DNA of 64,000 nucleotides from an uncultured delta proteobacterium (GTDB lineage Bacteria; Desulfobacterota; Desulfuromonadia; Geobacterales; DSM-12255): assembly GCA_963787125.1 (NCBI GenBank), contig CAWBBV010000001.1, positions 640,001 to 704,000 on the forward strand, in the 5' to 3' direction. Made by a program: the position numbers and the translations under genes. This document shows, in pieces, positions 22,377-46,408 of this stretch. The notes beneath the pieces were generated by a model, which saw only the letters and a program-made list of their open reading frames with translations, had not been told where the DNA came from and did not search any database. Numbering within the stretch: position 1 is the stretch's first letter; each line of letters starts with the position of its first letter.

Positions 22377-22410
22377 CTGTAACTGATCCGCAACATCTCC
22401 ATTCTATGCT
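22377..22410 (+). promoter_or_regulatory. Putative Pho box and -10 upstream of small Cys protein/psiE
   Basis: CTGTAACTGAT CCGCAACATCT then TATGCT at the same +17 offset. Confidence 0.65.
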
Positions 22411-22443
22411 GCCTATAACACGAACAATATGAATGGAGGCGAT

Positions 22444-22647
22444 ATGAAACTGATTCCGTTGGGCGATTATTACGTTTGGCACTGCGACTGGTGCGATAGC
22501 ACCAACTACACGATCTGGACACGCATGGAGCTGGATGGTCTTGCCTGCGCCGCCTGTCACAAAAAAGCCACTGCTTTTAGCGAAAGCTCAGCGGCATTCA
22601 GCCGCCAGCATGGTGCTGACAGAAGCGCTAATAATCTGACACTGTAA
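22444..22647 (+). CDS. Small Cys-rich (CxxC...CxxC) zinc-ribbon-like protein, 67 aa
   Basis: GGAGG RBS, ATG 22444, motifs CDWC and CAACH, no signal peptide. Confidence 0.7.
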   Translation: MKLIPLGDYYVWHCDWCDSTNYTIWTRMELDGLACAACHKKATAFSESSAAFSRQHGADRSANNLTL

Positions 22648-27758: not shown

Positions 27759-27768
27759 TTGCCTTGAT

Positions 27769-27799
27769 AAGGTCTGAAAACGTTCTGTTTTCAGACCTT
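27769..27799. terminator. Probable bidirectional terminator between phoU and EAL gene
   Basis: AAGGTCTGAAAAC / GTTTTCAGACCTT perfect 13-bp stem between convergent genes. Confidence 0.8.
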
Positions 27800-27807
27800 G
27801 TTTTGTT

Positions 27808-29112
27808 TCAGCTGCAAAGGGGATTTGCTGATGGTTTGGCCAGCAGATACCCCTGGCCGAAATGGATGCCGATCGTTTGCAGATATGCCAGTTCTTCAGG
27901 CCGCTCTATCCCCTCGGCAATGACTTGCGCCCCGATTTTATTGCAGAAAGTTACCAGACATTCGACCAGCGCCTGTTTCGTAGAGGATTGATCGATATTG
28001 GCGATCAGGAATCTGGCCAGCTTCACGTACTCGGGTTCAAGACTTGCCAGCATCTGCAGGCCTGCATAGCCGGAACCCAGATCATCAATGGCGATTGAAT
28101 ACCCCTGCTCCCGGTAATGAGCCACTCCCCGCAGGAACAGATCATAATCTTCAATGACCGTTCTTTCCGTCAGTTCAAAGACAATCCGGGAACGCTCGAT
28201 CTGCAGCTCATCCAGAAGACTCGCCGTCAGGCCCCGTTCGTGGTCGCTGGACTGGAAAAGGGCCGGACTGACATTGAGGAATATCTTGCCGGGAATCTCC
28301 AGATTTCTGACATTGCCGAGCGCTTTTTTCCGACAGAGGATCTCCAGCGCCGAAGCGAGTCCATACGCTCCCGATTTGGCGAACAGCTCTTCGGTATTGT
28401 CGATGATGCCGGGCCGGCTGACGCGACTCAAGGCTTCATAACCATAGACTGTGCCGCTCTCCAGGTGTACGACCGGCTGATAGACCGGCGTGATCAGCTC
28501 GCAGCTGATGATCTTTTCAATGGCGGCCAGTTCGCTATTGTGGCCGCTTTCGGGCTGAACCGGCGCGCCGAAGAGTTCCTGAAACGCCCTGAAGAGGGCG
28601 TTATCACTGCTCTCACCGATCCGGTTGGTGAGGTAGACCCCCTCAACCTTGATGGAGACTTCGCGGTCGCTGCCAAGGGGGAGAATCTGTCTGGCCATGA
28701 GCGTATGCTCGTCAAGCAGCGCGAGTTCGGCCTGCATCAGGGCAAGGTCCTGGCGAAACAGCCGGTCATCGTAGACGCTAACAGGCACCAAGAGGAGAAA
28801 AAAGTCCTTCATCCCTGACTTGTAAGCCCCCGCAACCCGTCCGGACAGTTGGCGTCCCAGTTTACGGAGCAGAATTGCTACCCTGCTCATAAGGTCGTCG
28901 GGGAGAAATTCACCATAGTTAAGATGGATGGCGACAATGCCGGCATGGCCTGATTTTTCCAGAGTGGCTTTAAAGGTGGTAAACAGGTGCGTACAGTCGC
29001 CGATGGACTCTTCAAGCCGCGGTTGCCGTACCGACGCTAGCGGAAGTGACGGCAGGGGAGGCAGGACGTGACTACTCCCCCCCGGGTAGCCTACCATCTG
29101 CATAGCCATCAT
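27808..29112 (-). CDS. EAL-domain c-di-GMP phosphodiesterase with unassigned (possibly degenerate GGDEF-like) N-terminal region
   Basis: YQPVV, GYEALSR, FLNVSP, FELTE, IAIDDLGSGY, IAEGIE, GQGY. Confidence 0.9.
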   Translation of the reverse strand: MMAMQMVGYPGGSSHVLPPLPSLPLASVRQPRLEESIGDCTHLFTTFKATLEKSGHAGIVAIHLNYGEFLPDDLMSRVAILLRKLGRQLSGRVAGAYKSGMKDFFLLLVPVSVYDDRLFRQDLALMQAELALLDEHTLMARQILPLGSDREVSIKVEGVYLTNRIGESSDNALFRAFQELFGAPVQPESGHNSELAAIEKIISCELITPVYQPVVHLESGTVYGYEALSRVSRPGIIDNTEELFAKSGAYGLASALEILCRKKALGNVRNLEIPGKIFLNVSPALFQSSDHERGLTASLLDELQIERSRIVFELTERTVIEDYDLFLRGVAHYREQGYSIAIDDLGSGYAGLQMLASLEPEYVKLARFLIANIDQSSTKQALVECLVTFCNKIGAQVIAEGIERPEELAYLQTIGIHFGQGYLLAKPSANPLCS

Positions 29113-29276
29113 TTTTCATCCAGCAGGGCAAAAAGATGCTCGCCGAAATATTCCCTGTTGGCCTGGCGATATTCATCGCGCAGTTCACGGAATTTGGCTA
29201 TGGATGAGTCCAGGTCTTTCAGTCCGGAAGCTTCGGAAAATGTGACTTTTTTGAAGTTGAAAAATAATAACTTCAT
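29109..29276 (-). CDS. Unannotated 55-aa protein (below ORF-track cutoff)
   Basis: AAGGAG RBS, ATG 29276, MKLLFFNFKKVTFSEASGLKDLDSSIAKFRELRDEYRQANREYFGEHLFALLDEK*, ATGA overlap with EAL start. Confidence 0.72.
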   Translation of the reverse strand: MKLLFFNFKKVTFSEASGLKDLDSSIAKFRELRDEYRQANREYFGEHLFALLDEK

Positions 29277-29288
29277 TTTTGGATCTCC

Positions 29289-29600
29289 TTATTTTTCGTG
29301 ACTGGCCAGCATGAAGATGCCGGTCATTTTGAAAAGTATCGTGTTGGTCGGATTCAACTGCCGCAGAAAAATCTCGGCCTTTTTTTCGTCGCGAATATTC
29401 TTGAAGCAGCGGAGCAGTAGAGCTATTCCCATGGAATTTATCCGCCCGGCCTGACTGAAATCGATGCGGACAACCTGATTGCTCACCATGGCGGGAAGTC
29501 CCTGCAGCTCTTTTTCGGCAGCAGCATCGATGTTGCCGTGCAGCTCAATGTGGTCAATTAGCTCCGCAGAGCGGGCGGTGATTTTGAATAAATCAGCCAT
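29289..29600 (-). CDS. STAS-domain anti-anti-sigma-like protein
   Basis: LHGNID, IDFSQAGRINSMGIALL (phosphoacceptor Ser), LFKMTG. Confidence 0.88.
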   Translation of the reverse strand: MADLFKITARSAELIDHIELHGNIDAAAEKELQGLPAMVSNQVVRIDFSQAGRINSMGIALLLRCFKNIRDEKKAEIFLRQLNPTNTILFKMTGIFMLASHEK

Positions 29601-29614
29601 GAAACCTCCTTTTG

Positions 29615-30589
29615 TTACAGGTAGTTGTAGTCGGTGGAAATGGAAAACCCTTTGGGGCTTTCACAGTCGAGTGGCGAAGAGGCTTTGAGATGCCCGCCGA
29701 GCACTGTCTGCATGCCGGGGAGGATATTCACATGCAGATGGTCCAGAAATCGCCAGATAATGAAAAGTCCGCGGCCGCCGACTTCTTCCTGCGCCGTCTC
29801 CATGCCATCTTGATTACGCGCCAGAAAATCGACGACCATCCCCGGCGCCAGGGTTCCCCAGCCGTCGGTAATTTCCATGGCCAGAGTCTCGCCGTCAAAG
29901 GCGAAGCGAAATTTTATCTTTTCGTCGGCGTCTATGGCCCGATTCTCTCCCTTACTGTAAAGCTTTCTGCCGTCATCACCCTGAGGCGCCCCGTAAAGAG
30001 CGTTTTCCACCATTTCGTCTGCCAGCAATGCTGCCCTTTGCCGGAGTAATTCCATCTCCTCGGAATCACCGCTGATAGTGGTTACCAGGGCAGCGATGAG
30101 AGACTCTTTCTCGTTGGACGATGTCAGCGAAAACTCATGAACCGGACTGCCCGCGCTGACATAGTCATGCAACTCCCAGGGAGATCTCACCAGTAGTCTG
30201 GTTATGGCCTCATGCAGAGAAGCAATTCCGCTCTCATCGTCTGCGGTCGGGGTAACAAGCAGATGTCTGATACTGTCGGCTGCGAGCTGTTGGAGTGGCG
30301 GCAATGGGTCTGTTGCCAAGGTAACCAGCAGTATTTCGGCTCCAGGGTATAATTTATTGATTTCTCTGACCAGCTCCGGGCGCGACTCGGGATAAAGCCT
30401 GCTGGAGAGGATCACCAGCGCCGGCTGCAGCTGTAACAGGGCCATTTTTTCACCGAACAGCTTTTGCTCCGGAGGATTGCCAATACATAGCAGCCCGGGA
30501 AGCCCTGTTAACAGGGGCAGGAACGCATCTTCATCAATTACGCTGTTAAATAGTGCCAGGACGAGGTGACGGTCCGTAATGCCCTTCAT
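29615..30589 (-). CDS. RsbW/SpoIIAB-like Ser kinase (HATPase_c) with receiver-like N-terminal domain
   Basis: N box ADEMVENALY, G1 ITDGWG, G2 GGRGLFII; start ATG 30589 behind AAGGAGG. Confidence 0.8.
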   Translation of the reverse strand: MKGITDRHLVLALFNSVIDEDAFLPLLTGLPGLLCIGNPPEQKLFGEKMALLQLQPALVILSSRLYPESRPELVREINKLYPGAEILLVTLATDPLPPLQQLAADSIRHLLVTPTADDESGIASLHEAITRLLVRSPWELHDYVSAGSPVHEFSLTSSNEKESLIAALVTTISGDSEEMELLRQRAALLADEMVENALYGAPQGDDGRKLYSKGENRAIDADEKIKFRFAFDGETLAMEITDGWGTLAPGMVVDFLARNQDGMETAQEEVGGRGLFIIWRFLDHLHVNILPGMQTVLGGHLKASSPLDCESPKGFSISTDYNYL

Positions 30590-30602
30590 AGTGCCTCCTT
30601 GG

Positions 30603-30722
30603 TCCAATCCTAAATCAAAGCGCTATCTTCGTTGGCTCGTCTTCGGCTCCTCAGCGTACTGATGTACTGCTTCGTTGCCTCAATCCTCGCCGCCTTGATT
30701 TCATCTTTGATTTAGAATCGGA
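30603..30722. repeat. About 120-bp MITE/REP-like element with 18-bp terminal inverted repeats
   Basis: TCCAATCCTAAATCAAAG vs reverse complement of CTTTGATTTAGAATCGGA (16/18 identical); fills an intergenic gap. Confidence 0.6.
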
Positions 30723-30723
30723 A

Positions 30724-31917
30724 TTAAATCTCTGTTGCCGCAATCAGCAGGGTTACATCATCTTCAAAGGCCGTGGTTTCCGTAAAGAGTTCCGCTGATC
30801 TCCGTAATAGATTACGCAATTCCAGCGGTGAGTAATCCCCGGCTTTGGCCAGAATCCTCTCCAGGCGCTCATAACCGAATTCTTCTCCTTGCGGGTTTGT
30901 GCATTCCACGATGCCATCGCTGTAAAGAAAAAGGGTATCACCGGGATGGAAATCACAGGTCAACTCCTGGTAAGAACAGTTTTCCTCAAAGCCGAGCGGA
31001 AAGCCGGCCACCTCCTGGATCATTTCAGGAGCAAAATCCCTCCGGCGGATGATGTAGGGGAAGTTATGGCCGGCGTTGGCCAGAATTATTTTATTGGCAG
31101 TGCGATCAATGACAATGATCAGGCAGGTCATCAGCAGGCTCTGGCGGGCGGTGGCCAGGATGGCGTTATTCATGCCGTAGAGCAGCTCTGCCGGAGTTTT
31201 TACTCCAAGGCCTATCAGTGAGTGGAGGCTGGCTTTGGCAGCGGTGGTCACCATGCCTGCCTGCACCCCATGACCGCTGACATCGGCAACTACCAGTCCC
31301 AAAAGATCTTCGCCAAGGGGAAAATAATCATAAAAGTCGCCGCCGATTTCCGATGAAGTAACCACCCCGGCACTGATGCTGATGTCGCCATGACGACACT
31401 CTGCCGGGGGGAGAAGGTCCCGCTGGATCTTGCTCGCCTTGTCAACTTCCGCAGAAATTCTTGCACTGAGTAGTTGCAGAGTGTTGAAAAGCTTCACCTG
31501 GGTTTCCGAGATTTTCATCATCAGATCGGAAACGGCGACGATACCGAGACAGGCGTCAGCCCCAACAACGGGAAAAGAGTCGATCGTCAAGCCGGGGTCA
31601 ACCTCAAGCAGTCTGACCAGGGCGGCGTTGATATCAAGCTCTGCTGCCAGCGCCAGCTGGCTTTCTGCCAACAGCACCCGGATTGCTTTTTTGCCATACA
31701 GGTCAACGGCAAAAGGACGGCCCAGCTGTTCGAAGAAGAGCACCTTGCGGTTGATTACCCCGATGAATTTCCCCTCCGCGCTCACCGGCAGGGCAAGCAG
31801 GGACTGATCCCTCTGGAAGAGCTCCATAACATCTTTTACCTGGGTTGTTGCAACGATCTCCGGCGCAGTGCGCATGATATCGAACAGCGTCGGGACAACT
31901 TGAAGCAGATGATTCAT
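30724..31917 (-). CDS. CBS-pair + SpoIIE/PP2C Ser phosphatase (RsbU-like)
   Basis: N-terminal CBS pair; IQRDLLP, EIGGDFYD, VADVSGHG, ANAGH, LYSDGIVE, DDVTL. Confidence 0.92.
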   Translation of the reverse strand: MNHLLQVVPTLFDIMRTAPEIVATTQVKDVMELFQRDQSLLALPVSAEGKFIGVINRKVLFFEQLGRPFAVDLYGKKAIRVLLAESQLALAAELDINAALVRLLEVDPGLTIDSFPVVGADACLGIVAVSDLMMKISETQVKLFNTLQLLSARISAEVDKASKIQRDLLPPAECRHGDISISAGVVTSSEIGGDFYDYFPLGEDLLGLVVADVSGHGVQAGMVTTAAKASLHSLIGLGVKTPAELLYGMNNAILATARQSLLMTCLIIVIDRTANKIILANAGHNFPYIIRRRDFAPEMIQEVAGFPLGFEENCSYQELTCDFHPGDTLFLYSDGIVECTNPQGEEFGYERLERILAKAGDYSPLELRNLLRRSAELFTETTAFEDDVTLLIAATEI

Positions 31918-31971
31918 ATATCCCCCATTTGTATGACGGGCGGCCGCAGAATGCCCTTTGCAACCCCTAAG

Positions 31972-32027
31972 AAATTAACAGCGCCATGTTGCAGGGAAGT
32001 CTCATTAAAGACAAAATCTCGTGACAA
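31972..32027 (-). promoter_or_regulatory. Putative Pho box array and -10 for the CBS-SpoIIE operon
   Basis: Minus strand TTGTCAC (32027), ATGAGAC (32005), CTGCAAC (31994) in 11-bp phase; TAATTT at +17. Confidence 0.65.
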
Positions 32028-32160
32028 AAAAAGTAAGTGGTGCGGCGCAGACTGGCGCTTGAGCTGCCCGGACGCTGGCTGGTTGCGGGGGTAGCGATTG
32101 TAACAAGAAATTTGCCTGCTCGTGCTGCTACTGTTGCAGAGTCGGTTTATAGTTAAGGGG

Positions 32161-33982
32161 GATAGTGTCAAAAGTTTCATGAAAAGCCGGGATATTGAAA
32201 TGGAAAGTACTCGAAAGTAAACGATGCCCTTCATCTGCATCTTTTCCGAGTCTGTCCAGACTGTGACTTCACTACTTTGTGGTTACTGGCTTGAATTTTG
32301 GGCAAGCCACTCTGTGACCAGGCACGTGAGATAGTTGGTCAGATTAAAACAACAATCAGTAAATTGATCTTTGAAGACGGGAAGTCAGGCAGCTAGCGAG
32401 AGGATCTTGGTCCATCTAGCCTGAATGGTCGGCAGTGCCTTCAACTCCTGCAAAGGCACCGGTGGTAGATATTTTAGCGACATGTGAGGCCTGAGGAAGT
32501 TGTAGTGGGTCACAAACAGCGTAGTTAAAGATACCGCACCGTTTGTGCTGTTGAATCCTGCTGCTGGCCTTACATGATACTTGAAGGTTCTGTTGAGCCG
32601 CTCAACGAGCTGCTTGAAGGATCTGTACTCTTCGGACTCGGCATCAAGGTTTTGGAGGCCAATAACCTTTTTGTGCTGAATCGTCTGGGAATCATCAGTC
32701 TGGGCATTGATGAAATGAATGCCAGCTGGATAAGAAGGGTTTCCGTCGCTGACAAGGGTTATTTGCTGATCGGCAGAAGCAGTCCTGATGGCTTCATTCA
32801 TAGCGATAATGGCAGGCTGAGTGCCCCTGTTATCGGCCACGTGATAGGCGGAGATTTTCAGGTTCTTTGCCGAGATAAAAAAGAAGACATAATGGTGCTT
32901 GCCCAGGATCTTGATGTAGGTCTCATCACCTGCAGAGATATTATCGATATGGCCTTTATGCTTGAGATTGAATCGGTGGCAGTGCCAGGCGGCGCCAGCG
33001 GCATAATTGAGAACTGTCTGATGAGAAACCTTGATACAGAAGACTTCGCGCAGGATTTGAGCAGTTTTTCTGGCCGGAACGGCGAATGAAACATAGAAAG
33101 TCAGAATCAGGCCAAGCACGTTTTCGCTGTTATGGATTCTCGCCAGTTCGACCGGCGGTTTGTCCGGAGAAGAGAGTTCCAACTCTTCCGGTTTGTAGTG
33201 ATATTCGCGGTACTGGTAGTTGATTTTGAACTGAGAACTTTTCTTTTTCATCAGCTCTTTCTCGGCTTTATTGAGCTTGGCAAGCGCCTGGATACGGTGA
33301 GGACAGTTATCATTTGGGCACTTGTGGATGGTCACTTCCTTTTGCGACTTCCACCTGAAGAGAGCCAGCCCGCAATGGGGACAGAAGAGCTTTGACTTTC
33401 TGTTGGTTCTGAAGCGCTGTTGGAGTTGGAAGAGTTGAGAGCAAACCTTGCAGAGAACTTGAGAGCGCTTCTTTCCGTCGTTGAAGTAGAGATAAGTATT
33501 TGGCGCTCCGCAGCAGGGACAGGTGACATGCACTGGAACCGGTGATGAACCCGCCCGGAGCTTGACCGGAGCAAGAGACTTTCCGTGAAGTGTTTCGTAC
33601 TCAATCAGGAGTTGCCGGTAGTCTTTTTGATCGAGGTCTTTTTTTTAAACTTTGGGGGCTCAGTCAGTGGCGGCTTGGGATCGACAATAAAGTTTCTGTA
33701 GTTCGGATGTTTCTCTTTGAAATCGTCCTTTGGCTTAACTTCAGGATTACGATTTTCGAGGACATCTGACAACCCGACGACGATCTGTTCAATCTCGGTC
33801 TTTGTAAACTTGGAGCAAATCCAGACAACAAACCGGGCAGTTTTGGATAGGTACGACATGAGCTAGCCCTCCATAACTGGCATTCTTAACCAGAATCACG
33901 GGGGGAGGCAAGACTTTGATTGGTAATGCATTGAAATTAGAACTGAAAAGCAAAAAGACATGTCAAGAAGTTTGACACAACG
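32161..33982 (-). mobile_element. Insertion sequence, DDE transposase of IS6/IS240-like type (about 1.82 kb)
   Basis: Imperfect TIRs (GATAGTGTCAAA / TTTGACACAACG); flanking duplication TTAAGGGG at 32153-32160 and 33983-33990 (a 10-bp reading GTTAAGGGGG also fits). Confidence 0.85.
32385..33859 (-). CDS. Transposase split over two frames (33605-33859 and 32385-33533), joinable by -1 shift at A8G
   Basis: Zn ribbons CPCC/CKVC/CPHC; catalytic GDETYIKI, VSDGNPSY, VERLNRTFK, HYNFLRPH. Confidence 0.85.
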
Positions 33983-34007: not shown

Positions 34008-34790
34008 ATGTTGACAAAGCTTAAGACTGACTATCGGCAGATGTTTGAAGTTGAAATGGCGGTATTTCTTGTCGTGCTGGCGATCCTTGCCTGCACAGTT
34101 GCCATTGCCAATGCGGCGGAAATTCGGGTTGGCGGCGCAGCTGAAGCCTGTAACGGCATGTTTGCCGTGATCAAAGAGCAGGTACGGGATGAAATCGGCA
34201 CCAGTCTGCTGGTAAGCCCGAACTCCTCGGCACAGGCGTTACTTGACCTCGACCGGGGAAACATTGACATTGCCACCACCGACGTCCCGCTGGATAGCCT
34301 CATATCTGACCTGGAGAAAACAGGCTATCTGATTGTCCCGGAAAGCTTCCAGGTGCAGGGGATCGGTACCAACAGAATCCTGGTTTACCTTAACAAGGAG
34401 ATCAAGGTGACGGCACTCTCCCAGGGGCAGTTAAGCGATATTTTTACCGGGAAAATCTCCAACTGGAAGCAGCTGGGTGGTGATAACCGGAAAATTGTTG
34501 TTGTCTGGGGGGATAATACGCCTGACCAGAACCGACTGTTTCGCTGGTACGTTATCGGCACCGGGCCGATTGCCAAAACAGCAGTCAGGGCAATGGATCA
34601 ACAGGATATAATTGAACGTGTCAGTAAAACACCGGGCGCAATCGGCATTGCCTCCTATGTATACGCCAGCGGTAGAACCCGCAATCCGAAAACCCCATTT
34701 GTTTCGGCCAAGGTAATTGCCATAACCAAGGGCGCTCCCAGTGGCGAAGTCCAAAAGCTGCTGGAAGTGGTGAAATCCTATGATTATTGA
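34008..34790 (+). CDS. PstS-like (PBP superfamily) substrate-binding protein, ligand uncertain
   Basis: Signal-like N-terminus; LSDIFTGKISNWKQLGG, VSKTPGAIG; phosphate-binding GS motifs degenerate. Confidence 0.8.
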   Translation: MLTKLKTDYRQMFEVEMAVFLVVLAILACTVAIANAAEIRVGGAAEACNGMFAVIKEQVRDEIGTSLLVSPNSSAQALLDLDRGNIDIATTDVPLDSLISDLEKTGYLIVPESFQVQGIGTNRILVYLNKEIKVTALSQGQLSDIFTGKISNWKQLGGDNRKIVVVWGDNTPDQNRLFRWYVIGTGPIAKTAVRAMDQQDIIERVSKTPGAIGIASYVYASGRTRNPKTPFVSAKVIAITKGAPSGEVQKLLEVVKSYDY

Positions 34791-34879: not shown

Positions 34880-37450
34880 TTACATCCCAGCGCACTTTAC
34901 TCTTATCGCCTCAAAGTCCTTCCCTTTCGGCATGATGAAAAGGCATTTGCCGTTGCTCCGTTTTTCCCACAACTCGCCAAGTTTCCGTTTCTCATCATTC
35001 TCCGGCAAGATCCAGTCGCGGCTGTTTTTGTACTCAACCGCAAGGATTTTCCCGTTTTCAAGCTGGCAAAGAAAATCAGGATAAAAACGGTCACTGCCGG
35101 TTTGCAGTGAAAAGGACGTTTTCTTGCACTCGACGTTGCGGACCCAGAATTTTACCCCTTCAAGCTCCGTTGCCAGGAAGAGCGCACATTCGAATTCTTC
35201 CCCATCACCCTTCAGATTGCCAATCTGCGGGAAAAAGTGCTTGGGCAGCTCGGTAAAGCCGCAGTATATTGAGTCGTAAGCATAACGCCCGGCCTCAAAG
35301 ACAACCTGACTTCTGTCATTAACGGCAAATTCCTCGGGAGAGAGCAGCAGACATTGATGCACTTGCTGCATCGCCTGTCTTTTCCCCTCATTGATCTTTG
35401 TTTCCAAGGCGCTTCGCAGCCGGAACTTGGCATAAGCCAGCTCTTCCAGCGTAAAACCGCTCTGCGTCAGCCACTCAACACCCCTGTTCAAAAAGGCAGC
35501 TTTTTCGTCAGGCATAAGGTTTGCGTCATAGATATTTCCTTCCAGCCAGGAAACCAGCTGCACTTGATCCCAGCCGGAACGGTACTCGAACAGATAAGTT
35601 TCTGCCACACCCGGCGTAAAATTGATGAATTTCACCTTTTCTTTTTCCAGATACATTGTGCCGCCCTGGGGTGCCTGGTTTGCCTTGGTGAACGCTGACA
35701 GTTCGCTGGAATAGTCGAGCAGGCTCCATTCCCCTTGCAGCAGGTGGGTGGCTTCAAACGATTCCCATAGTTCCCCTTGGCGGAACTGCAACTGCGGCAC
35801 CTTGAACAGCTCGCCTTGTTCTGACGGTGTCTTTGGCGGTACCTTACGCGGTGAACGCAAGCGGGTTATGGCCTCCCGTACTGCCTGCTTTCCCTCCGGA
35901 GTCTGGAAAACCTCCTGCAAGGCTTTCACCTGGGGCTCGGTAAAAGAACCCTTCAGGGTGATGGAGCCGTTCTCCGGCGTGATCTCGATCTTTTTCAGCA
36001 GATTATCGGGAATATTCCCAGGCTCGGGCAGCTCCGGCGTGCTGTAGGTCAGGCTGGTCTGATGGCTGAAAAGGTCATCATCCAGTTCTTCATCCTGAAT
36101 ATTGATCAGCTCCTTTGTCTCCTGCCGCTCAAAACCGCTTCGCACCAAGCCATCCTTGAGACTCTCGACCGTGGCCGCAAAGTTGCTCGATGTCAAATAA
36201 GCATAGGCCATATTCAGGTCAGGGTGTTCATTGCGCTTTGCATAAGGAAGGCGCAGAATCCGCCCCAGCACCTGCTCTGCAGCCGTAGCCGAACTGGTGT
36301 TACGTAGCGAGCAGAGCACATAGGCAAAGGGGCAGTCCCACCCTTCACGTAACTTGTCCACAGTGATGATGAAACGGAACGGGCAATCCTCAGCTAGAAT
36401 ATTCTTTCCCGCTATCTCGTCCGTGGTGCCGGTGGCGATGGCGATTTCATGCGCCGGAATACTGAAGTCGTCCAGTAGCGCCTGCTTGACCCGTTCCGTC
36501 GTCAATGTTTCGTGGTCGGCGTCCTTGCGCTCCGCTTGCAACAGCATAATCGGCCTCAAGTAGTTGCCGCCCCCGGCCCGTTCAGCCTCTGCTGACACCT
36601 GCAACTTGTTCAGACGTCCAATCGCATCCCTCAGGGCGTCAAGCCAGTTGGGCCGCCGCACCAAAGTCAGTGGCATCTTGATCATATCTTCCGAATGCAG
36701 CACCGAGGCGGAGACACTGTAAAGCACGTTACTCGGCTGATAGGTGCGGTCCGGTGTCGCCGTCAGCTCCAGAATGGCGCATGGCTCAAAGCGGGCCAGG
36801 GTATCAAATGCCAGCAGAGTCCCTTGATTGTGGGCTTCATCGACGATGACAAACGGTTTGCGCAGTCGCAGCACATCTACCAGCGAACCGTTGCCGCGCA
36901 CGCTAGCGTCGCTGATCCCCTCGAAATGTTCCATCAGGCTGCCGTTCTGCTTATAGACGCTCAGGCGACCGGTCTCCTCCTGCTTGAATGCCTGCATGGT
37001 GGCGACAATGATCACATTGGAACCGTTCAGCAGATGCGGCGTCATCCGCAAGGCTTCCTCGATATCCAACACGGTCAACTCACCCAGCGCCGACGCCACC
37101 GACTGGCCGAGGATTGACGACTTGTCACGTAGAGCCTTCAAGGTCTGCTCGCGGATCGGTTCCGATGGCACCAGCCAGAGAGTCAGACTGCATGGGGAAT
37201 GCAGCAGACTGCGGTTCACCCGTTCGATAGCCATGCCTGCAACCAGAGTCTTGCCGCCACCAGTGGGGATGCGCAGGCAGACATACGGGACCGTTTCAAG
37301 ATTGCGCAAGGGCCGGTAGAAAAGCGCCATGCCCCGCCACTCCTTGGTGGTCTGGGCATAGCTTTCGCGGGGATAGCCGGTTTCGCGGCAACGTTTGAGG
37401 AACTTTTCAAACCATTCCAGCGCGTCAAACTGATATCTCTTCAGTATCAT
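34880..37450 (-). CDS. Type III restriction endonuclease Res subunit (SF2 helicase + PD-(D/E)xK nuclease)
   Basis: IPTGGGKT, VDEAH, LTAT, LREGWDCP, QVLGRILR, FYPDF...AVEYK. Confidence 0.9.
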   Translation of the reverse strand: MILKRYQFDALEWFEKFLKRCRETGYPRESYAQTTKEWRGMALFYRPLRNLETVPYVCLRIPTGGGKTLVAGMAIERVNRSLLHSPCSLTLWLVPSEPIREQTLKALRDKSSILGQSVASALGELTVLDIEEALRMTPHLLNGSNVIIVATMQAFKQEETGRLSVYKQNGSLMEHFEGISDASVRGNGSLVDVLRLRKPFVIVDEAHNQGTLLAFDTLARFEPCAILELTATPDRTYQPSNVLYSVSASVLHSEDMIKMPLTLVRRPNWLDALRDAIGRLNKLQVSAEAERAGGGNYLRPIMLLQAERKDADHETLTTERVKQALLDDFSIPAHEIAIATGTTDEIAGKNILAEDCPFRFIITVDKLREGWDCPFAYVLCSLRNTSSATAAEQVLGRILRLPYAKRNEHPDLNMAYAYLTSSNFAATVESLKDGLVRSGFERQETKELINIQDEELDDDLFSHQTSLTYSTPELPEPGNIPDNLLKKIEITPENGSITLKGSFTEPQVKALQEVFQTPEGKQAVREAITRLRSPRKVPPKTPSEQGELFKVPQLQFRQGELWESFEATHLLQGEWSLLDYSSELSAFTKANQAPQGGTMYLEKEKVKFINFTPGVAETYLFEYRSGWDQVQLVSWLEGNIYDANLMPDEKAAFLNRGVEWLTQSGFTLEELAYAKFRLRSALETKINEGKRQAMQQVHQCLLLSPEEFAVNDRSQVVFEAGRYAYDSIYCGFTELPKHFFPQIGNLKGDGEEFECALFLATELEGVKFWVRNVECKKTSFSLQTGSDRFYPDFLCQLENGKILAVEYKNSRDWILPENDEKRKLGELWEKRSNGKCLFIMPKGKDFEAIRVKCAGM

Positions 37451-39036
37451 GCAACCCCCACTTTCAGCTTGTATGGCAACTGCTTGAAGACAATCCCCTC
37501 GCGGCGCAGCCGCTCCTGATCAATGCGGCAAGCCGTGCCGTAGATGACCTTTGGCCCGGCGTGTCCGGGCAGCGCGGCCAAAATCATCGTGGTCAGCACA
37601 TTGCCCCCCTTTTGTGTCTTATCTTTGAGGATGCCGTTATAGAGGAGGTAGACCGCCGTGCCGTTGTGGATGCCGAGCAGCGGGCTATCCAAGGTGGCAG
37701 TGGCAGGCAGCGGTCCGCCGGTTTCGGTAAAATAGACATGCCGGGCGAGATCGGCAAATCGTACGGTGGAGCGGATGTTGCCCCGTTCGTCAAAGAGCGG
37801 TTCACCCAGTTCGCAGAAGCGGAAGCCGCCACCAAGAGCGGGAACTTTTTCGTAACCTTGAGATACCCGCAATAACCGTGTAGACGTAATGTTGCGGCAG
37901 ATGTTTTCGTCCATCTCAACTAGGATGAAGCGGCGGTTGCCACCGTCAGAGGCGTTCTGTGCCAGTACGGCGTGGCCGGTGGTGCCACTCCCGGCAAACG
38001 AATCAATAACAAGGGAATCCTTGTCAGTTGCAATCTGAAGTATGCGCTGAATCAATCGGGTAGGTTTGGGAGTATCGAAAACCTTGTCATCACCGCCCAA
38101 CAAATCTTTAATTTCCTGTTTTGCTTCTTGGCTATGACCAACCTCGCTATTTGCCCACCACGTCCATGGAGTAACTCCTGAAGACTCTTCAAGGAATGTC
38201 TTACGCCGAGGAACGCCATTACCGTCTTTTCCAAACCAAATACGATTATCCGCAATAAGTTCAAGAAAACCGCTCTCCACATTTTTCCAGCAATTGCCTG
38301 GTGGCGGAGCAACTTTTCTTCCTGAAGGTGTAACAATCTCGTACATTTGATTTGGCCTAAATCCTTGAGCTGCAAAATCAGTCGATACCCATGGGCCACG
38401 TGGGTCGTTGTCAGGGTTTTTAAACGTCGCACGCTGTTTTTCAGATTGTGGAATTTTATTCAAGTTCAAGTTTGTAATTGCTTTGCCATAGACAATTATA
38501 TGTTCATGTGCGTCGCTCAACATCAAACGTGCATCTGGTGAAGTTCTCTTCTGCCAAAGCACATTCGCAACAAAGTTATTCGCTCCGAAGATCTCATCCA
38601 ATAACATCCGCAAAAGATGCACCTCATTATCATCAATGCTGATAAAAATAGCTCCGTCATCCCGCAGAAACTCCCGCAGCAGCGCCAATCTTGGATACAT
38701 CATGCACAACCATTTGTCATGGCGCGACAGGTCTTCCGCTTCCTTCCCCACGGCTCTGCCCAGCCATTCGCGCATCTCGGGACTGTTGACGTTGTCGTTG
38801 TAGACCCAGCCCTCGTTGCCGGTGTTATATGGAGGATCGATATAGATGCACTTCACCTGCCCGGCGTAGTAGGGGAGCAATGCCTTGAGCGCCAGCAGAT
38901 TGTCTCCCTGCACCAGCAGGTTGCCGCTGCCTGGGTCGCCCACTGATAGCTCGGGGTTTTCCCTGAGCAGGTGAAACGGTACTTCGCGGTGATGGTTGAC
39001 AACGGCTTTTTTGCCTATCCAGTCGAGTTTGGGCAT
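37447..39036 (-). CDS. Type III RM Mod subunit (beta-class N6-adenine methyltransferase)
   Basis: IYIDPPYNTG, FDTPKP, DSFAGSGTTG; 4-bp overlap with res. Confidence 0.93.
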   Translation of the reverse strand: MPKLDWIGKKAVVNHHREVPFHLLRENPELSVGDPGSGNLLVQGDNLLALKALLPYYAGQVKCIYIDPPYNTGNEGWVYNDNVNSPEMREWLGRAVGKEAEDLSRHDKWLCMMYPRLALLREFLRDDGAIFISIDDNEVHLLRMLLDEIFGANNFVANVLWQKRTSPDARLMLSDAHEHIIVYGKAITNLNLNKIPQSEKQRATFKNPDNDPRGPWVSTDFAAQGFRPNQMYEIVTPSGRKVAPPPGNCWKNVESGFLELIADNRIWFGKDGNGVPRRKTFLEESSGVTPWTWWANSEVGHSQEAKQEIKDLLGGDDKVFDTPKPTRLIQRILQIATDKDSLVIDSFAGSGTTGHAVLAQNASDGGNRRFILVEMDENICRNITSTRLLRVSQGYEKVPALGGGFRFCELGEPLFDERGNIRSTVRFADLARHVYFTETGGPLPATATLDSPLLGIHNGTAVYLLYNGILKDKTQKGGNVLTTMILAALPGHAGPKVIYGTACRIDQERLRREGIVFKQLPYKLKVGVA

Positions 39037-39050
39037 GATCTCCTCATATA

Positions 39051-39079
39051 CAAAAGGCCGCCCATGCAGGAACGGCCTT
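39051..39079 (-). terminator. Hairpin between HicA-like gene and mod
   Basis: AAGGCCG / CGGCCTT stem with short T run on minus strand. Confidence 0.55.
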
Positions 39080-39111
39080 AGCTTTCAGTTACGTAGTTAT
39101 CCGAACAGCAG

Positions 39112-39396
39112 CTATAGAAGTTCTTGAGCGGCCAGCAGTTTTTCGTACCCCTGGCGGTCAAGTGGGCAATCGATCAACTCGATGAACTTCTGTTTGTTCA
39201 GCTTGCACTGCTTTGCCATTCTGCTCAGTAGTTCATCGGTAATAGTTTTCATCTTCGGGGTGTGGCTGGTTTTGGTGAAGGCCATTGTTTTCTTGCCGGT
39301 AGTTGCCCGGTAGCAAAAAAAATGGTGGTCGCCTTCCTGTAGTTCAAATCCCTTGGCGACTAGGCTCGTTTCTATCTGCCGCTTGTCACGCTGCAC
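39112..39396 (-). CDS. HicA-like small basic toxin candidate
   Basis: LVAKGF...GDHHFF...SHT...ITDELLSRMAKQCKL pattern resembles the HicA dsRBD-like fold. Confidence 0.6.
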   Translation of the reverse strand: MQRDKRQIETSLVAKGFELQEGDHHFFCYRATTGKKTMAFTKTSHTPKMKTITDELLSRMAKQCKLNKQKFIELIDCPLDRQGYEKLLAAQELL

Positions 39397-40450
39397 CGGC
39401 TACCTCCCGCAGTGCGGCAAGCAGGCTTTGCTTGACGGCAAGCGCCGCTCCGGTTAACTCCTCATCGGCAGCCATGGCGTAGGTGTCCCATAAAAAAGCT
39501 ATCTGCTCTCTAAGCTCCAGATCAAGTTGATCGCGGGTATAGGCGTAGACGTCAATTCCCAGTTCCGGCATTTCAAGACAGTATAACTGCTGGGTCTCGT
39601 CAAGCTCCGGCGTCAACTCAAGCGGTTTGCTGAACTCAAATGTTCTGCCGGCATATTCGATTGTCTGGAGGTAAAAGGTGGAGAAGTCAACCTCTTCGAT
39701 ACTCTCCACATTGATGATCTTTTTCGGCAGGTCGTTTTCATCCATGATGACTTCCCCCGTGACCTGAATCAATTCACGGGGGCGTTCCAGCAACATCTCT
39801 TCGAGAGCTTCGCTGTAGGTGCATTCAAGCTCTCTGCTATTGGCCGGGTAGACGATTTTTATCTTTCGTTCATCAAACTGAATCTCCGACAAACGACCGG
39901 TGACGGTGCGCACCTGTCGTTCAGTATCAGCGGCAGTGGAAAGGCACGCTTTGCCACGCTCGTGCAGCGTGTCCAGCGAAACATGGAACGACCCGGTTGG
40001 TTGCGAAATCCCGGCCTTGATACCGCTCCCCATGCTGGGAGTCATGGCCCTTATTGCCTCGATAAAGCGGTCACGACGAGCACTGTCAGGTATTTTAGCG
40101 GTAAGCCCGGAAAGTTCGCCGCATGAGATAAAGGTGCAGCAATCCGAGAAGAGCTTGCCGACAGATTCGACATCGTTGATTGCAAACAAGGTAACGGTAG
40201 GGTCGCCGATCTCCACCGGCACGATATAACTTCCTGGTTTAGGGAGTGAACAGAGGAGAGGATATTTTGCTTCGACGTTTTTGCTTAGCCGTTCGCGGAG
40301 CCGCACGGAGATGTTTTCATGCTGCATGGCAAGCAGATGAACCGCTCGCTGCATAGCGCCAAGAACTTGAGTCAAGGTAGCAACGGGCAGCATCTGGCCG
40401 TCGGCGAATCGCCCCTCAAACTTTATTTCAAACTGCCGCTTGTCACTCAT
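39386..40450 (-). CDS. 354-aa protein, possible OB-fold middle and HicB-like C-terminal domain
   Basis: C-terminal YCLEMPELGIDVYAYTRDQLDLELREQIAFLW resembles HicB; overlaps downstream HicA-like gene by 11 bp. Confidence 0.55.
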   Translation of the reverse strand: MSDKRQFEIKFEGRFADGQMLPVATLTQVLGAMQRAVHLLAMQHENISVRLRERLSKNVEAKYPLLCSLPKPGSYIVPVEIGDPTVTLFAINDVESVGKLFSDCCTFISCGELSGLTAKIPDSARRDRFIEAIRAMTPSMGSGIKAGISQPTGSFHVSLDTLHERGKACLSTAADTERQVRTVTGRLSEIQFDERKIKIVYPANSRELECTYSEALEEMLLERPRELIQVTGEVIMDENDLPKKIINVESIEEVDFSTFYLQTIEYAGRTFEFSKPLELTPELDETQQLYCLEMPELGIDVYAYTRDQLDLELREQIAFLWDTYAMAADEELTGAALAVKQSLLAALREVAGAA

Positions 40451-40741: not shown

Positions 40742-42277
40742 TCAGCTGATTACCGGTTCCAGAACCAGCTTCAGCTCAAACGCTTCCTTGAAAAGATCGC
40801 TTTTGGAGGTAGCGCCATAGATCTCGACGGCAAGATCGCCATTGCCTTGCAGGCGCAGTACGAGGCGGGAAGGGGAGAAGAGCGGTTCGACAATGCTGAC
40901 CATGCCGGTGCGGCTCCGGTCAAGACCGTCTGCCAGTCTCAAAATGCCGCCTAGCCTTGAGACAAGCAGGCGATCAGCTACGCTTAGCCGCATGAACTGC
41001 TCGTGCTTTTTTTTAGGGAGTGACTTGCGATGGTACCGGGCAACATTGGCGATCAATTCCCGCTCGCGAGGGGTGAAGCCGAAAAGGTCGGCGTGGCGAA
41101 TCAGGTGGTAGGAGTGTTTGTGATGACTGGAGTAGTTGATAAAATAGCCGACGTCATGGAGGATTGCCGCCGCTTCAAGAATCCGACCTTCCCGTTCCCC
41201 CAGGCTGTACGGCCTGGCAAGGGCTTTAAAGATCTGCTGCGCCAGATGCGCTACCTGGAGCGCATGGTTGGCGTCGAAGTGACATGATGCGGCAAAACCG
41301 AGTACGGACTCGCGCCAGGAGCGTGGCACATCCATAGCCGCAAGCATGCCGTGCTTCCTTAGTCCGCGCAGTATCAGCCCTTCCCGTATCCCCCGCTCGT
41401 TAACCTTGAGAAGATTAGTCTGGCAGAACTCCAGCAGCTCATCGATGACCATGACTCCGGCTACAATGATATCGGCACGATCCGGACTTAAGCCCGGAAT
41501 GGCGCGGAGCTCTTTGAGCGTTTTTCGCAGCAGCATTGCCAACAGGTGGACTACGTCACTGCGCAGGATTTCATAGCCATGGGCCGAGCCGTAACCCTCT
41601 TTGCGCCCGGCCAGAAGCATGGCAGCGATGGAGGTTACTGTGCCCCCTGAGCCGATGACCGCATTGATTGTCGCCATGCCGTCCGGAAAGGTCTGCTTGA
41701 GGGTTTTTCTGATATGGCGGCGCAGGCGGTTGTGAGCTTCTGCTGAAGATAGATCAACATTGAGAAAGGTTTCCGACAGATATACCGCCCCGAGCTCCAG
41801 GGAAAAAATCTCTTCAACATGTTGCCCGACGGTGGTGACCAATTCCAGACTGCCGCCGCCGATATCTATCAGCAGGTACCGGGCATCCTCAATGTCGAAG
41901 TTATTGAAGGCGCTTAAGGCGGCAAGTTCGGCTTCTTCCTCACCCTCAATGACACTGACTGCAATGCCGGTCTGTTCCTTGACCGCAGCGATAAACGCCT
42001 TGCCATTGGTTGCCTTGCGCACGGCACTGGTGGCAACAGCCTCAATCTCCCGGACACCATAGCCGTCAATGATCTTTTTCTGGCGGATAAGTGCCGTGAT
42101 CGCCCGGGCGCAGGCTTCAAGCGAGAGCGCTCCGGTTTTGTGCAGCCCTTCGCCAAGGCGGACTGTGGCTTTTTCATCATCAAGAACCCGGAACTTCCCG
42201 GAACTTTCAGCTTCAACGACAATGCTGCGAATGGAGTTGGTGCCGATATCAATGGCGGCCAGACGATTATTTGTCAC
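40742..42277 (-). CDS. ppx: Exopolyphosphatase Ppx/GppA with HD domain
   Basis: AAIDIGTNSIR, VATSAVR, IDIGGGSLE, GIREG, ILHDVGY. Confidence 0.93.
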   Translation of the reverse strand: MTNNRLAAIDIGTNSIRSIVVEAESSGKFRVLDDEKATVRLGEGLHKTGALSLEACARAITALIRQKKIIDGYGVREIEAVATSAVRKATNGKAFIAAVKEQTGIAVSVIEGEEEAELAALSAFNNFDIEDARYLLIDIGGGSLELVTTVGQHVEEIFSLELGAVYLSETFLNVDLSSAEAHNRLRRHIRKTLKQTFPDGMATINAVIGSGGTVTSIAAMLLAGRKEGYGSAHGYEILRSDVVHLLAMLLRKTLKELRAIPGLSPDRADIIVAGVMVIDELLEFCQTNLLKVNERGIREGLILRGLRKHGMLAAMDVPRSWRESVLGFAASCHFDANHALQVAHLAQQIFKALARPYSLGEREGRILEAAAILHDVGYFINYSSHHKHSYHLIRHADLFGFTPRERELIANVARYHRKSLPKKKHEQFMRLSVADRLLVSRLGGILRLADGLDRSRTGMVSIVEPLFSPSRLVLRLQGNGDLAVEIYGATSKSDLFKEAFELKLVLEPVIS

Positions 42278-43161
42278 AGGAGACCCCTTACACGCGTGCC
42301 CATTTCAGTCAGGGGCTCTCTAGCCTGGAGTTGCAGGAACTGAGTGAAAAGCTGATGGCGGCGGTCAGAGATGGTATTTTTTAGCAGCGGCTCAGCCGAA
42401 GGCTCGCTTGTCATCCTCCCGGTCATGCTGCAGAAAACATCCAGATCATGCAGCTGCCCGAGAACTTCCTGGTAAGCCTTGATTGAATTGTAAACATCCT
42501 TGTAATTATCTGCAGCCAGGGGCGCCAGAAATTCCAGCCGGTATCTGAAACGCTTGACGGCAATCCGCAGCCGGTGCTGGGCAGTGATATTCTCCTCCAT
42601 TAGAGCCTCGGGGTAGATCTCCAGCAGCGGCTTCTCCCGTTCCGTAACGGCTTCAAGAAGATACGCGCCGACCGGCTGGAAAAGATTGCTGGCGTTCGGG
42701 TTGAAAATGCGCGGATTGCTGCAGATTTCATCGATCCTGCCAAGGAGTGAGCCGGGATCAATTTTCTTCAGTTCACGCCTAAGTTTGCGCTCTTCCGTCA
42801 CCCTTTCCGCCTGTAAAGCCCTGACTATAGAGGTGATAGCCGCAGTTGAGCTCTCAGTGGATGTTTCCGACAAGGTGTTGAAATAGAGGAGCGCTTCATC
42901 AGTGTTGCGGATTGTTCCGAGCATGTCAGTCAGCCTCTTGAGCTCTTTGCGGAGTCTGGTGAGCTGGCGTTTCCTGAAGCAGTGGGCAAAGATAGCGATC
43001 CCTTCCCGCAGACGGCGCGAGGAGACCCGCAGGTCATGGAGGGCTTCAGGTTCGAAAGCCTCTCTGCTAAGGGTTAGCTGGAGAAAAAAATCGTCGCTGC
43101 GGTCCAGCAAAAAAGCCCGGGCGGCAAGCCAGGTTTGAGTGTCGGCAGTCACGTTTCTCAT
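42274..43161 (-). CDS. CHAD-domain (polyphosphate-binding) protein
   Basis: LHDLRVSSRRLR, HRLRIAVKRFRY, QEVLGQLHDLDV. Confidence 0.93.
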   Translation of the reverse strand: MRNVTADTQTWLAARAFLLDRSDDFFLQLTLSREAFEPEALHDLRVSSRRLREGIAIFAHCFRKRQLTRLRKELKRLTDMLGTIRNTDEALLYFNTLSETSTESSTAAITSIVRALQAERVTEERKLRRELKKIDPGSLLGRIDEICSNPRIFNPNASNLFQPVGAYLLEAVTEREKPLLEIYPEALMEENITAQHRLRIAVKRFRYRLEFLAPLAADNYKDVYNSIKAYQEVLGQLHDLDVFCSMTGRMTSEPSAEPLLKNTISDRRHQLFTQFLQLQAREPLTEMGTRVRGLL

Positions 43162-43553
43162 GAAGTCTTCTTCTCGGCTGAAAGGCTTTTATCGTTGCCT
43201 GCTGCCGCCCTGGTCTTTTTCCCGGCAGGTTTAGGCGCCCGTTCCGGATTGTCGGCTTCAATAGCGCTGTCGAGGAGATCATGCAACAGAACGTCGATTT
43301 TTTTCAGATCCTTGACACGTCCCTTGGCAGGTTTAATTTTGAGGCCATGAATTTCTTTTACCCAGGTGCGCGCAATAGTTTTAAGTCTTACCGGCGGCAT
43401 TTTCAGCAGATAATCGAGCAGTGCCTCTACCTCCCCCTCTTTGCAGAGGATGAAGCCCTCGGCCGTCTCGCGTACTGACGCCCGCAGAGACTTAAGTTCG
43501 GTGACGAGTTCGTGTTGCAGTAGTAGATGGCGGGATTCTTTCTTTTTTTCCAT
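43158..43553 (-). CDS. Hypothetical basic protein with Lys/Ala-rich tail
   Basis: In-operon ORF (2-bp gap upstream, 4-bp overlap downstream); LKIKPAKGRVKDLKKI. Confidence 0.8.
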   Translation of the reverse strand: MEKKKESRHLLLQHELVTELKSLRASVRETAEGFILCKEGEVEALLDYLLKMPPVRLKTIARTWVKEIHGLKIKPAKGRVKDLKKIDVLLHDLLDSAIEADNPERAPKPAGKKTRAAAGNDKSLSAEKKTS

Positions 43554-43555
43554 TC

Positions 43556-44236
43556 CTATATCCCCAGGCTGTCAGCAACCCGGCTGCTGATTTCTCGCGC
43601 CACGGCCTTTACTGACAGGTTGCCATTAACCATTGCAAAGTCGTACTCGGACTCCATCAGGGCAAACTCTTTCTGGATGAGACGTTGGTAGCGGATGAAG
43701 CTGTCAAAACTGTCGCGGGAAAATCCCAGGTCCATCCCTGATTCCCAGTAGTCCAGAGTTGCATTTTTACGCAGATTTCGCTCGACTAACTGAGTCGGGC
43801 TGACCTTGACATAAACCACCAGATCAGGAACCAGAGCAATGCCGTAGAGAGAGCGGACCCAGTCCCGGTCGGCGCCCCGGACGATATCCCTGGCCATGAG
43901 AGTATAGATATATCGATCTGCCAGCACAATAAAACCGGCTTTTAGTGCCGGAATGATCCGGTTCTCCAGTTGATCGGCAAAATCGGTTGCATAGAAAAGG
44001 CTGCGGGTTATCTCCCCCAGCACATTCCCCTGCTTGGCTTCTTTCAGCTCATCGGAAACCAGTGTCGAGCGCCGCAGTCCCACGTTTACCGTGGCATGCC
44101 CCTTGTTTTCCAGGGCATCACGCAGAAGCTCCATCTGAGTGGAGCGTCCGGAGCCGTCGGCCCCTTCGATGACAATCAGGCGACCGGTCAACTCTTCCGG
44201 ATTAATTCCGGGGATACCATCTCCGTAAAATTGCAT
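43556..44236 (-). CDS. Thymidylate-kinase-like protein, P-loop Lys replaced by Arg
   Basis: IEGADGSGRSTQ, TDFADQLE, LADRYIYT, DYWESGMDLG. Confidence 0.88.
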   Translation of the reverse strand: MQFYGDGIPGINPEELTGRLIVIEGADGSGRSTQMELLRDALENKGHATVNVGLRRSTLVSDELKEAKQGNVLGEITRSLFYATDFADQLENRIIPALKAGFIVLADRYIYTLMARDIVRGADRDWVRSLYGIALVPDLVVYVKVSPTQLVERNLRKNATLDYWESGMDLGFSRDSFDSFIRYQRLIQKEFALMESEYDFAMVNGNLSVKAVAREISSRVADSLGI

Positions 44237-44242
44237 AAACCC

Positions 44243-44932
44243 TTATCCTATTGTCCTTGAACGATAACGCGGCAGATCAATCTTTGTGGCAATGATATCT
44301 CTCACCGTCTGCTGTTGTGTTTCTATGGGAGACGAACCATCTACCTCGATAAAACTGAAGCGATCGCGCAGCGAAAGATACTCTTCATAAATCTTCCCCT
44401 GAAAAAGCCGGAAACTTTCATACGGATCGTTGGATAGACCAAGATCCATTCCTGCTTCATGGTATTTTAGCTGCGGTCTGCCGCTCAGAATTCTGCCGAG
44501 CGCAATCTTGAGCGGGGTATTGAAGAAAAGAGTGATATCCGGGTGGCAGGCAAAACCGTAAAGATTCTGGAGCCAGGATTGGGAACAACCCCGAACAGTG
44601 TCACGGGCAAAGGCGGTATAGATGTAACGGTCACAGAGCACCAGATAACCCGCTTTCAAAAGCGGCAGGATCTGCCGCTCGTAGCGATCGGCAAAATCGG
44701 TGCAGTGAATCAGGCTGAAGGTTGTCGGCGTAAGGAGTTGGCGTTTCTTCCCCTTGCTGGTAGCCTTTTTGATCAGCAGGGATGAATTCCACTCGGTGAA
44801 AAAAACCTTTAGCCCCTTCATCTCCAGCCAGCGTTTGAGGAGATAGAGCTGGGTAGATTTTCCTGAACCATCCAGTCCTTCGACAGCGATGAGTCTGCCG
44901 GGGTAGCGCTCAAGTTCACGGTGCAGCATCAT
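44243..44932 (-). CDS. Thymidylate-kinase-like protein, canonical P-loop
   Basis: VEGLDGSGKSTQ, TDFADRYE, LCDRYIYT, KYHEAGMDLG. Confidence 0.88.
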   Translation of the reverse strand: MMLHRELERYPGRLIAVEGLDGSGKSTQLYLLKRWLEMKGLKVFFTEWNSSLLIKKATSKGKKRQLLTPTTFSLIHCTDFADRYERQILPLLKAGYLVLCDRYIYTAFARDTVRGCSQSWLQNLYGFACHPDITLFFNTPLKIALGRILSGRPQLKYHEAGMDLGLSNDPYESFRLFQGKIYEEYLSLRDRFSFIEVDGSSPIETQQQTVRDIIATKIDLPRYRSRTIG

Positions 44933-46396: not shown

Positions 46397-46408
46397 AATA
46401 GCAACCTT

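Follow-up and report, generated by a model that had tools for sequence, protein, structure and literature searches.

In this study, we analyzed a 64,000-nucleotide stretch of an uncultured delta proteobacterium of the Geobacterales (DSM-12255 lineage; assembly GCA_963787125.1, contig CAWBBV010000001.1, positions 640,001 to 704,000 of the forward strand), hereafter called the window, and found beside its phosphate genes a conserved unit of four genes, which encode a CBS-domain phosphatase, a kinase, a STAS protein and a small protein of 55 amino acids (aa), referred to here as S55. The feature is real and conserved, and it is probably Pho-regulated. In the window, the unit is followed by a gene for an EAL-domain protein predicted to degrade cyclic di-GMP (c-di-GMP), and the resulting operon comprises five minus-strand open reading frames (ORFs) running from 31917 to 27808, convergent with phoU (ORF calls and Pfam), as a first-pass annotation made from the letters alone had described. 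That annotation listed the 55-aa ORF but overlooked it as the constant fourth member of the unit. We tentatively read the module as a switch, induced in the Pho response, that signals via S55 instead of a sigma factor, here probably to a co-translated phosphodiesterase with a dead GGDEF domain, and so would lower c-di-GMP. The features of the locus are as follows.

31972..32027, minus strand: Pho-box-like array with extended -10 (motif model, conserved footprint)
30724..31917, minus strand: CBS pair, helical linker and PPM/PP2C phosphatase (RsbU/RssB-like), 397 aa (Pfam CBS and SpoIIE)
30603..30720, no strand: dispersed repeat of ~120 base pairs (bp) between the phosphatase and kinase genes (genome repeat search)
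29615..30589, minus strand: pseudo-receiver plus RsbW/SpoIIAB-type (Bergerat-fold) predicted serine kinase, 324 aa (structure model, fold matches)
29289..29600, minus strand: STAS-only protein (RsbV/SpoIIAA-like) with predicted phosphoacceptor S56 (Pfam STAS)
29109..29276, minus strand: S55, a 55-aa protein of an unnamed Geobacterales family (homologs, ribosome-binding site, selection)
27808..29112, minus strand: degenerate GGDEF-fold plus EAL protein, 434 aa, predicted c-di-GMP phosphodiesterase (Pfam EAL, model)
27766..27802, no strand: terminator-like hairpin of 17 pairs where the phoU and EAL genes converge

Conservation, catalytic parts and promoter of the module

Among 301 genomes of the class, the kinase was present in 44, with identical gene order throughout, and all 36 loci that were fetched hold phosphatase, kinase and STAS protein. 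Full-length S55 was found in 40 of the 44 kinase-bearing genomes versus 0 of the 257 kinase-negative ones, and a phylum-wide sample added one further clear case outside the class, without S55. The four-gene order is therefore the part of the proposed gene order that is kept, whereas the EAL gene, which had been expected as a fixed fifth member, occupies that place in only 13 of 44 genomes, and the five-gene order as a fixed unit was rejected. On a quick phosphatase tree, these 13 genomes are scattered over several branches within the part that has full-length kinases, and locus L078 retains only an EAL remnant; both observations fit ancestral presence of the EAL gene and later loss.

The three catalytic parts appear intact. 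The phosphatase matches Pfam SpoIIE (E 7e-42), and the four residues that we take from family knowledge to be its metal-binding aspartates (D194, D212, D334, D386) are present in 52/52 homologs, while in 50/52 its CBS pair has an acidic residue where such pairs usually bind the nucleotide. The Pfam HATPase_c_2 match of the kinase lies below the cut-off and a sequence search against the PDB gave nothing significant, but its model (predicted local distance difference test, pLDDT, 84) shows a receiver fold and, after it, a Bergerat fold, with LvrC, RsbW and SpoIIAB as the top structure matches (LvrC being the top Foldseek hit, E 6.7e-9), and the ATP-box residues E192, N196, D242, G245, G272 and G274 (boxes N, G1 and G2) are kept in 54/54 homologs. 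The kinase most likely starts at 30589, where there is a ribosome-binding site. The folds of a receiver-like serine kinase, as named in the first pass, were borne out, but the receiver lacks its phospho-Asp: that position holds Ser in 36, Thr in 1 and Pro in 1 of the 38 homologs with the domain (Ser here), and 16/54 kinase homologs have no receiver at all. Phosphorylation of this domain by PhoR was consequently rejected. S56 of the STAS protein is kept in 53/53 homologs. Seven duplicate or broken loci (L018, L032, L066, L068, L069, L072, L082) were omitted from these residue counts. A separate protein, P0030, has CBS, PP2C and the same kinase type fused in one chain, which supports a joint function of the three. 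With catalytic residues intact and folds matching, the assignment to the RsbU/RsbW/RsbV type stands, and a working kinase/phosphatase/STAS cycle is highly probable on the strength of the sequence.

Upstream of the operon, the half-sites TTGTCAC (32027), ATGAGAC (32005) and CTGCAAC (31994) stand in 11-bp phase, with a weak fourth half-site, TTTTGTC, at 32016. The hexamer TAATTT at 31977 lies at +17 from the last half-site and belongs to an extended -10, TG-n-TAATTT, spanning 31980-31972. The three phased half-sites and the TAATTT hexamer had been noticed in the first reading, together with the claim that the same offset recurs at pstS and phoB; the offset does hold at both (half-site 23155 to TACCTT at 23172 for pstS; 19298 to CAGCAT at 19315 for phoB), but the phoB hexamer is poor. 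A half-site model was built from 20 sites upstream of pstS and phoB in relatives, with this genome and one broken phoB excluded. It gave the operon array 15.7 bits, beating 100/100 shuffles, and among the 3,546 upstream regions of the genome it ranked pstS 1, the operon 6 and phoB 13. Scores of at least 10 were reached by 32 of 54 operon-upstream regions (non-redundant, including this one, with those below 200 bp discarded and kin not independent) versus 52 of 3,546 (1.5%) genome-wide, and 37/54 exceeded shuffles at p<=0.05. The signal is period-specific, as the 32 regions found at 11 bp compare with 3, 8, 1 and 1 at 9, 10, 12 and 13 bp, and the footprint of the array is conserved in L010, L011, L014, L015 and L016 despite divergent flanks. 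Canonical Pho genes lie within ~8 kb in 14/36 fetched loci, in varied orders and orientations. A generic sigma-70 promoter scan did not detect the operon promoter, which is expected of a site without a -35. The suggestion that PhoB controls the operon thus gained support in silico from the rank of the array, its 11-bp specificity and its conserved footprint, and we regard such control as very likely, although the array could possibly serve another OmpR-family regulator with a similar box. That the promoter came from the neighbouring insertion sequence was rejected, as this element ends at 32160, 133 bp upstream.

S55, the EAL protein and the possible output of the switch

The S55 ORF is a real gene, because it has its own ribosome-binding site, the proportion of nonsynonymous differences is below that of synonymous ones (pN<pS) in 15/15 pairs, and 168 homologous proteins were found; a chance frame was rejected on the same grounds. 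The protein has a hydrophobic/basic N-terminus, a conserved core and a C-terminal motif that is preserved only next to the switch, and its stop overlaps the EAL start, with 4 bases shared. We found no Pfam or NCBIfam family, no solved relative and no Atlas hit at or above 0.9 for it. In 27 genomes only partial S55 matches occur. None of the 19 partial copies that were fetched has the C-terminal motif, but all retain the core. Purifying selection acts on this core in 55/55 pairs (11 copies tested), and 17 of the 19 adjoin phoBR, phoU or a small Cys-rich Pho gene. The C-terminal motif therefore travels with the switch, while the core would have a Pho-linked job of its own. The 48-55-aa gene stands in the position that the sigma gene holds in sigB/sigF operons, and on balance S55 is likely to be a physical part of the switch. 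Complex predictions of S55 with the kinase dimer, the CBS-linker dimer and the STAS protein scored 0.00, with the partner fold itself uncertain, and weigh neither way.

If S55 belongs to the switch, it might also act on the input side, as an RsbT-like activator or inhibitor at the CBS/linker region of the phosphatase, with some other output. Position 68 of the CBS pair speaks for this, as it is Pro in 93% of 42 S55-bearing sequences and Lys in 9/9 S55-less ones (three branches), and a partner that stiffens the linker has been described to activate RsbU-type phosphatases (PMC12143880). However, several S55-bearing loci, such as L086, L090 and L092, are also without the Pro, and the gene lies after the STAS gene, coupled to the downstream gene. 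We consider this role quite improbable.

The EAL protein is not the plain EAL protein of the first-pass annotation, as its N-terminus carries a degenerate GGDEF-fold domain, but its catalytic residues are intact. The model (pLDDT 65) matches GGDEF-EAL tandems over the full length and the Atlas features of the N-domain point to GGDEF, while there is no Pfam GGDEF match and a comparison of the N-domain profile with one GGDEF sequence of the window was not significant (E 0.16), though the degenerate motif aligned with GDEF; the call therefore relies on structure and Atlas features. The motif position reads GMKDF here and is freely variable among orthologs. In the EAL domain, E226, N280, E313, E316, D343, D344, K364, E400 and Q420, which we take from the EAL literature to be the metal and catalytic set, are invariant in 10/10. 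The long form, with dead GGDEF and EAL, occurs in 13 of the 301 genomes, each time directly behind S55, whereas 10 genomes have a short ortholog from which the GGDEF-fold domain is absent, and 8 of these lack the kinase and the switch. These two asymmetries, the short EAL form without the switch and the C-terminal motif of S55 tracking the switch, hint at real coupling, but they are also compatible with mere co-regulation in a Pho island. Control of EAL activity by the module is accordingly a serious possibility, which we place just short of probable.

The chain of events that we favor would run as follows. At low inorganic phosphate (Pi), phosphorylated PhoB would transcribe the operon, as the conserved box array suggests. 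The kinase with ATP would phosphorylate S56 of the STAS protein and the phosphatase would reverse this, judging by the intact motifs and by what is known of the families. A nucleotide bound to the CBS pair, most plausibly AMP or ADP as ATP falls, would turn the phosphatase on via the helical linker. Unphosphorylated STAS protein would then capture the kinase and free its client, most likely S55 in view of gene order and co-occurrence. In the least certain step, freed S55 would dock on the non-catalytic GGDEF domain and thereby render the EAL domain active.

Several observations weigh against this chain. The long EAL gene is absent from 31 of the 44 switch-bearing genomes, and the genes after S55 vary, including histidine kinases, EAL-CBS-GGDEF and GH3/lipid genes and unrelated ones. 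Since the EAL gene is missing in most relatives, the switch must have another or an exchangeable target too, and the earlier proposal of c-di-GMP degradation as the output is weakened, with the long EAL in 13/44 genomes against 40/44 for S55. The switch occurs without full-length S55 in 4/44 genomes, on at least three tree branches, and 17/54 operon-upstream regions have no significant box, some of them lying within longer operons. Nine of the 10 short EAL forms come from a single family, so that one or two events may lie behind the pattern of domain loss, and the partial S55 genes beside phoBR and phoU make it possible that S55 and the EAL gene are just co-regulated genes of a Pho island. The genome also has RpoS-like, RpoH-like and FliA-like sigma factors elsewhere (the last a fragment at a contig end), which makes a distant sigma target possible, besides an RpoD-like gene and one extracytoplasmic function (ECF) factor, and no LapG, the protein through which RapA is known to act, was found in this genome.

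A first alternative is that the genes are co-regulated only. A RapA-like EAL protein would then work once PhoB had induced it, and the switch would control a target encoded elsewhere, for example the Pho/Pst machinery, lipid remodelling or a distant sigma factor such as RpoS or FliA. The 31 of 44 switch-bearing genomes without the long EAL gene, the 8 genomes with a short EAL ortholog but no switch, and the RpoS-like gene of this genome speak for it. Near the module, genes for GH3, glycosyltransferase and LGT/decarboxylase proteins are found repeatedly, and in Shewanella an RsbW-type protein, CrsR, is able to bind RpoS. LvrC, the closest solved structure to the kinase, was itself proposed as an anti-sigma factor (PMC13269768). 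On the other side, the GGDEF-fold domain was found only in operon-linked EAL proteins (13/13) and never outside the operon. No sigma gene lies in the operon, as first reported and as the ORF list and Pfam bear out, and a SigB/F/G-family factor (TIGR02980) was over the cut-off in 0/44 module-bearing genomes. We consider co-regulation alone rather unlikely, though worth keeping in sight.

Another arrangement, the first-pass proposal in its simplest form, would follow the Sia, Bgr and Hsb systems, with the STAS protein, phosphorylated or not, binding the dead GGDEF domain and S55 serving as an accessory or membrane anchor. Direct control of enzymes by STAS-type proteins has been published for SiaC, BgrV and HsbA (PMC8457831; PMC5085249; 10.1101/2024.11.25.625174), and in some S55-less loci (L022, L027, L028), PAS-GGDEF(-EAL) genes directly follow the STAS gene. 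However, the STAS sequence is equally conserved in loci with and without a c-di-GMP enzyme, and such an arrangement leaves unexplained why the C-terminal motif of S55 tracks the switch; we deem it improbable.

Further EAL/GGDEF genes lie near some other module loci. Several of their products carry a CBS pair related to that of the phosphatase (E 1e-11 to 5e-14; L066:11442-13580, L090:11541-14366, L092:9029-11725, L093:2058-4766), which suggests a ligand in common. Downstream of the module, the products of one histidine kinase gene and two GGDEF genes seem, by eye, to share a short N-terminal hydrophobic segment (L020:9449-9700, L027:3482-3750, L028:1461-1700). In addition, a gene pair that encodes a GH3-family enzyme and a protein of ~360 aa without a clear family recurs in Pho loci behind S55, the EAL gene or partial S55 genes (L017:8928-11599, L079:3340-4971, L089:9069-11791, L107:1440-4132, L110:1487-4161, L117:1558-4211), and together with nearby glycosyltransferase, LGT-like and decarboxylase genes it may constitute a phosphorus-free lipid pathway.

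Neighbouring genes

The direct neighbours of the operon are pstSCAB-phoU, with the phoU stop at 27708, psiE and phoBR. Within the operon, the ~120-bp repeat, which has short inverted ends, matches the genome 17 times, and 16 of these matches reach 60 bp or more; in L010 and other close relatives the two flanking genes abut, and the repeat could influence expression of the four genes downstream. The insertion sequence at 32160-33982 (1,823 bp, with a DDE transposase and an 84-aa ORF) has 12 other near-identical genomic copies and splits the promoter region of the operon from a divergent PBP-family gene (34008-34790) that is its direct neighbour in L014 and L015. Beyond it, 34880-40450 (minus strand) holds a pair resembling a type III restriction-modification system (856 and 529 aa) with two small genes next to it, all labelled by eye, which together interrupt the region between the operon and a polyphosphate-type cluster (40742-47884, minus strand). 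This cluster contains ppx, a possible CHAD-like gene, two thymidylate-kinase-like genes, a helix-hairpin-helix-like gene, a histidine phosphatase gene and a ppk2-like gene, where all labels except ppx and histidine phosphatase are by eye, and a Pho-like box before the histidine phosphatase gene ranks 23 of 3,546.

Upstream of psiE-pstS lies a 72-aa Cys-rich ORF (22429-22647, plus strand) with its own Pho-box-like pair (22377-22394) and a -10 at +17. Many relatives have this ORF at their Pho loci too, frequently beside partial S55 genes, and no convincing Pfam family was found for it. Further away, a 518-aa ORF (9692-11248, minus strand) apparently fuses, by eye, an ECF-type sigma domain to an anti-sigma-like zinc-finger region. 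Genome-wide, GGDEF genes number 22 and EAL genes 5, and there are 9 matches to PilZ. For the operon region, no RNA holder was listed.

Relation to known partner switches and significance

The statement that no described system has this wiring was too strong, since the Sia, Bgr and Hsb switches and RapA are published. Researchers have found that these partner switches control c-di-GMP cyclases (PMC8457831; PMC5085249; 10.1101/2024.11.25.625174), that STAS-type proteins regulate adjacent cyclases (PMC8457831), and that a stressosome kinase acts on a cyclase (PMC4976288). SiaABCD of P. aeruginosa, BgrSTUWV-BgrR of S. meliloti and HptB-HsbR-HsbA-HsbD/CfcR of Pseudomonas share with the present module a PP2C phosphatase, a Ser/Thr kinase and a STAS(-like) protein. 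In those systems, the three control a neighbouring c-di-GMP enzyme, in place of a sigma factor or alongside one; for the present module, the long EAL gene adjoins the switch in 13/44 genomes, and other EAL/GGDEF genes lie near some further loci. Unlike these systems, whose outputs are described as active cyclases, the enzyme here has a degenerate GGDEF and an intact EAL domain, and the module differs further in its cytoplasmic CBS-pair input, pseudo-receiver kinase, extra small protein and Pho-box promoter; the phosphatase scores 48.5 bits against the SiaA family, where the cut-off is 700. The RsbU(P)/RsbV/RsbW-sigmaB and SpoIIE/SpoIIAA/SpoIIAB-sigmaF switches of Bacillus have the same three catalytic parts, folds and STAS serine, but in our operon the sigma gene is absent and the small gene takes its position.

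The receiver plus Bergerat-fold architecture of the kinase resembles LvrC of Leptospira, whose receiver has a canonical phospho-Asp that is phosphorylated by LvrB (PMC13269768), unlike the receiver of our family, which mostly bears Ser there and is missing from 16/54 members. RapA of P. fluorescens Pf0-1 is likewise a c-di-GMP phosphodiesterase behind a Pho-box promoter and is expressed at low Pi (PMC3032545), but its control is described there as transcriptional, without mention of a partner switch in the accessible text, and its LapG has no counterpart found here. Our literature search, outside which most subscription papers lay, returned no title or abstract on this module, on a switch with a phosphodiesterase output or on S55. 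What is new here is a putative phosphodiesterase as output, together with the small protein and the link to Pho, with the coupling between switch and EAL protein being inferred only; the described partner switches on c-di-GMP enzymes that we found all act on cyclases. According to one account, the targets of several sigma-less switches and STAS proteins are not known (PMC8256260). The present system is a compact, all-cytoplasmic one of five proteins in which a gene for a candidate target stands where a sigma gene would be expected, so the question of what a sigma-less RsbW binds becomes directly testable.

Geobacter has been reported to experience phosphate limitation during subsurface bioremediation (PMC3390588). 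If the genes are co-regulated only, the module would still be an undescribed signalling module of the Pho regulon with a new small-protein family. If the coupling is true, it would link phosphate limitation to biofilm control in metal-reducing, electrode-colonising bacteria. A bolder and less likely idea is that S55 represents a new class of sigma substitute, a membrane-attracted adaptor that is sequestered by the kinase and freed when Pi starvation drains ATP, and which, once released, would activate the phosphodiesterase via its dead GGDEF domain or plug-in outputs in other lineages. Should this be true, the module would be a two-key trigger, requiring both PhoB and low energy, by which Geobacterales leave mineral or electrode biofilms.

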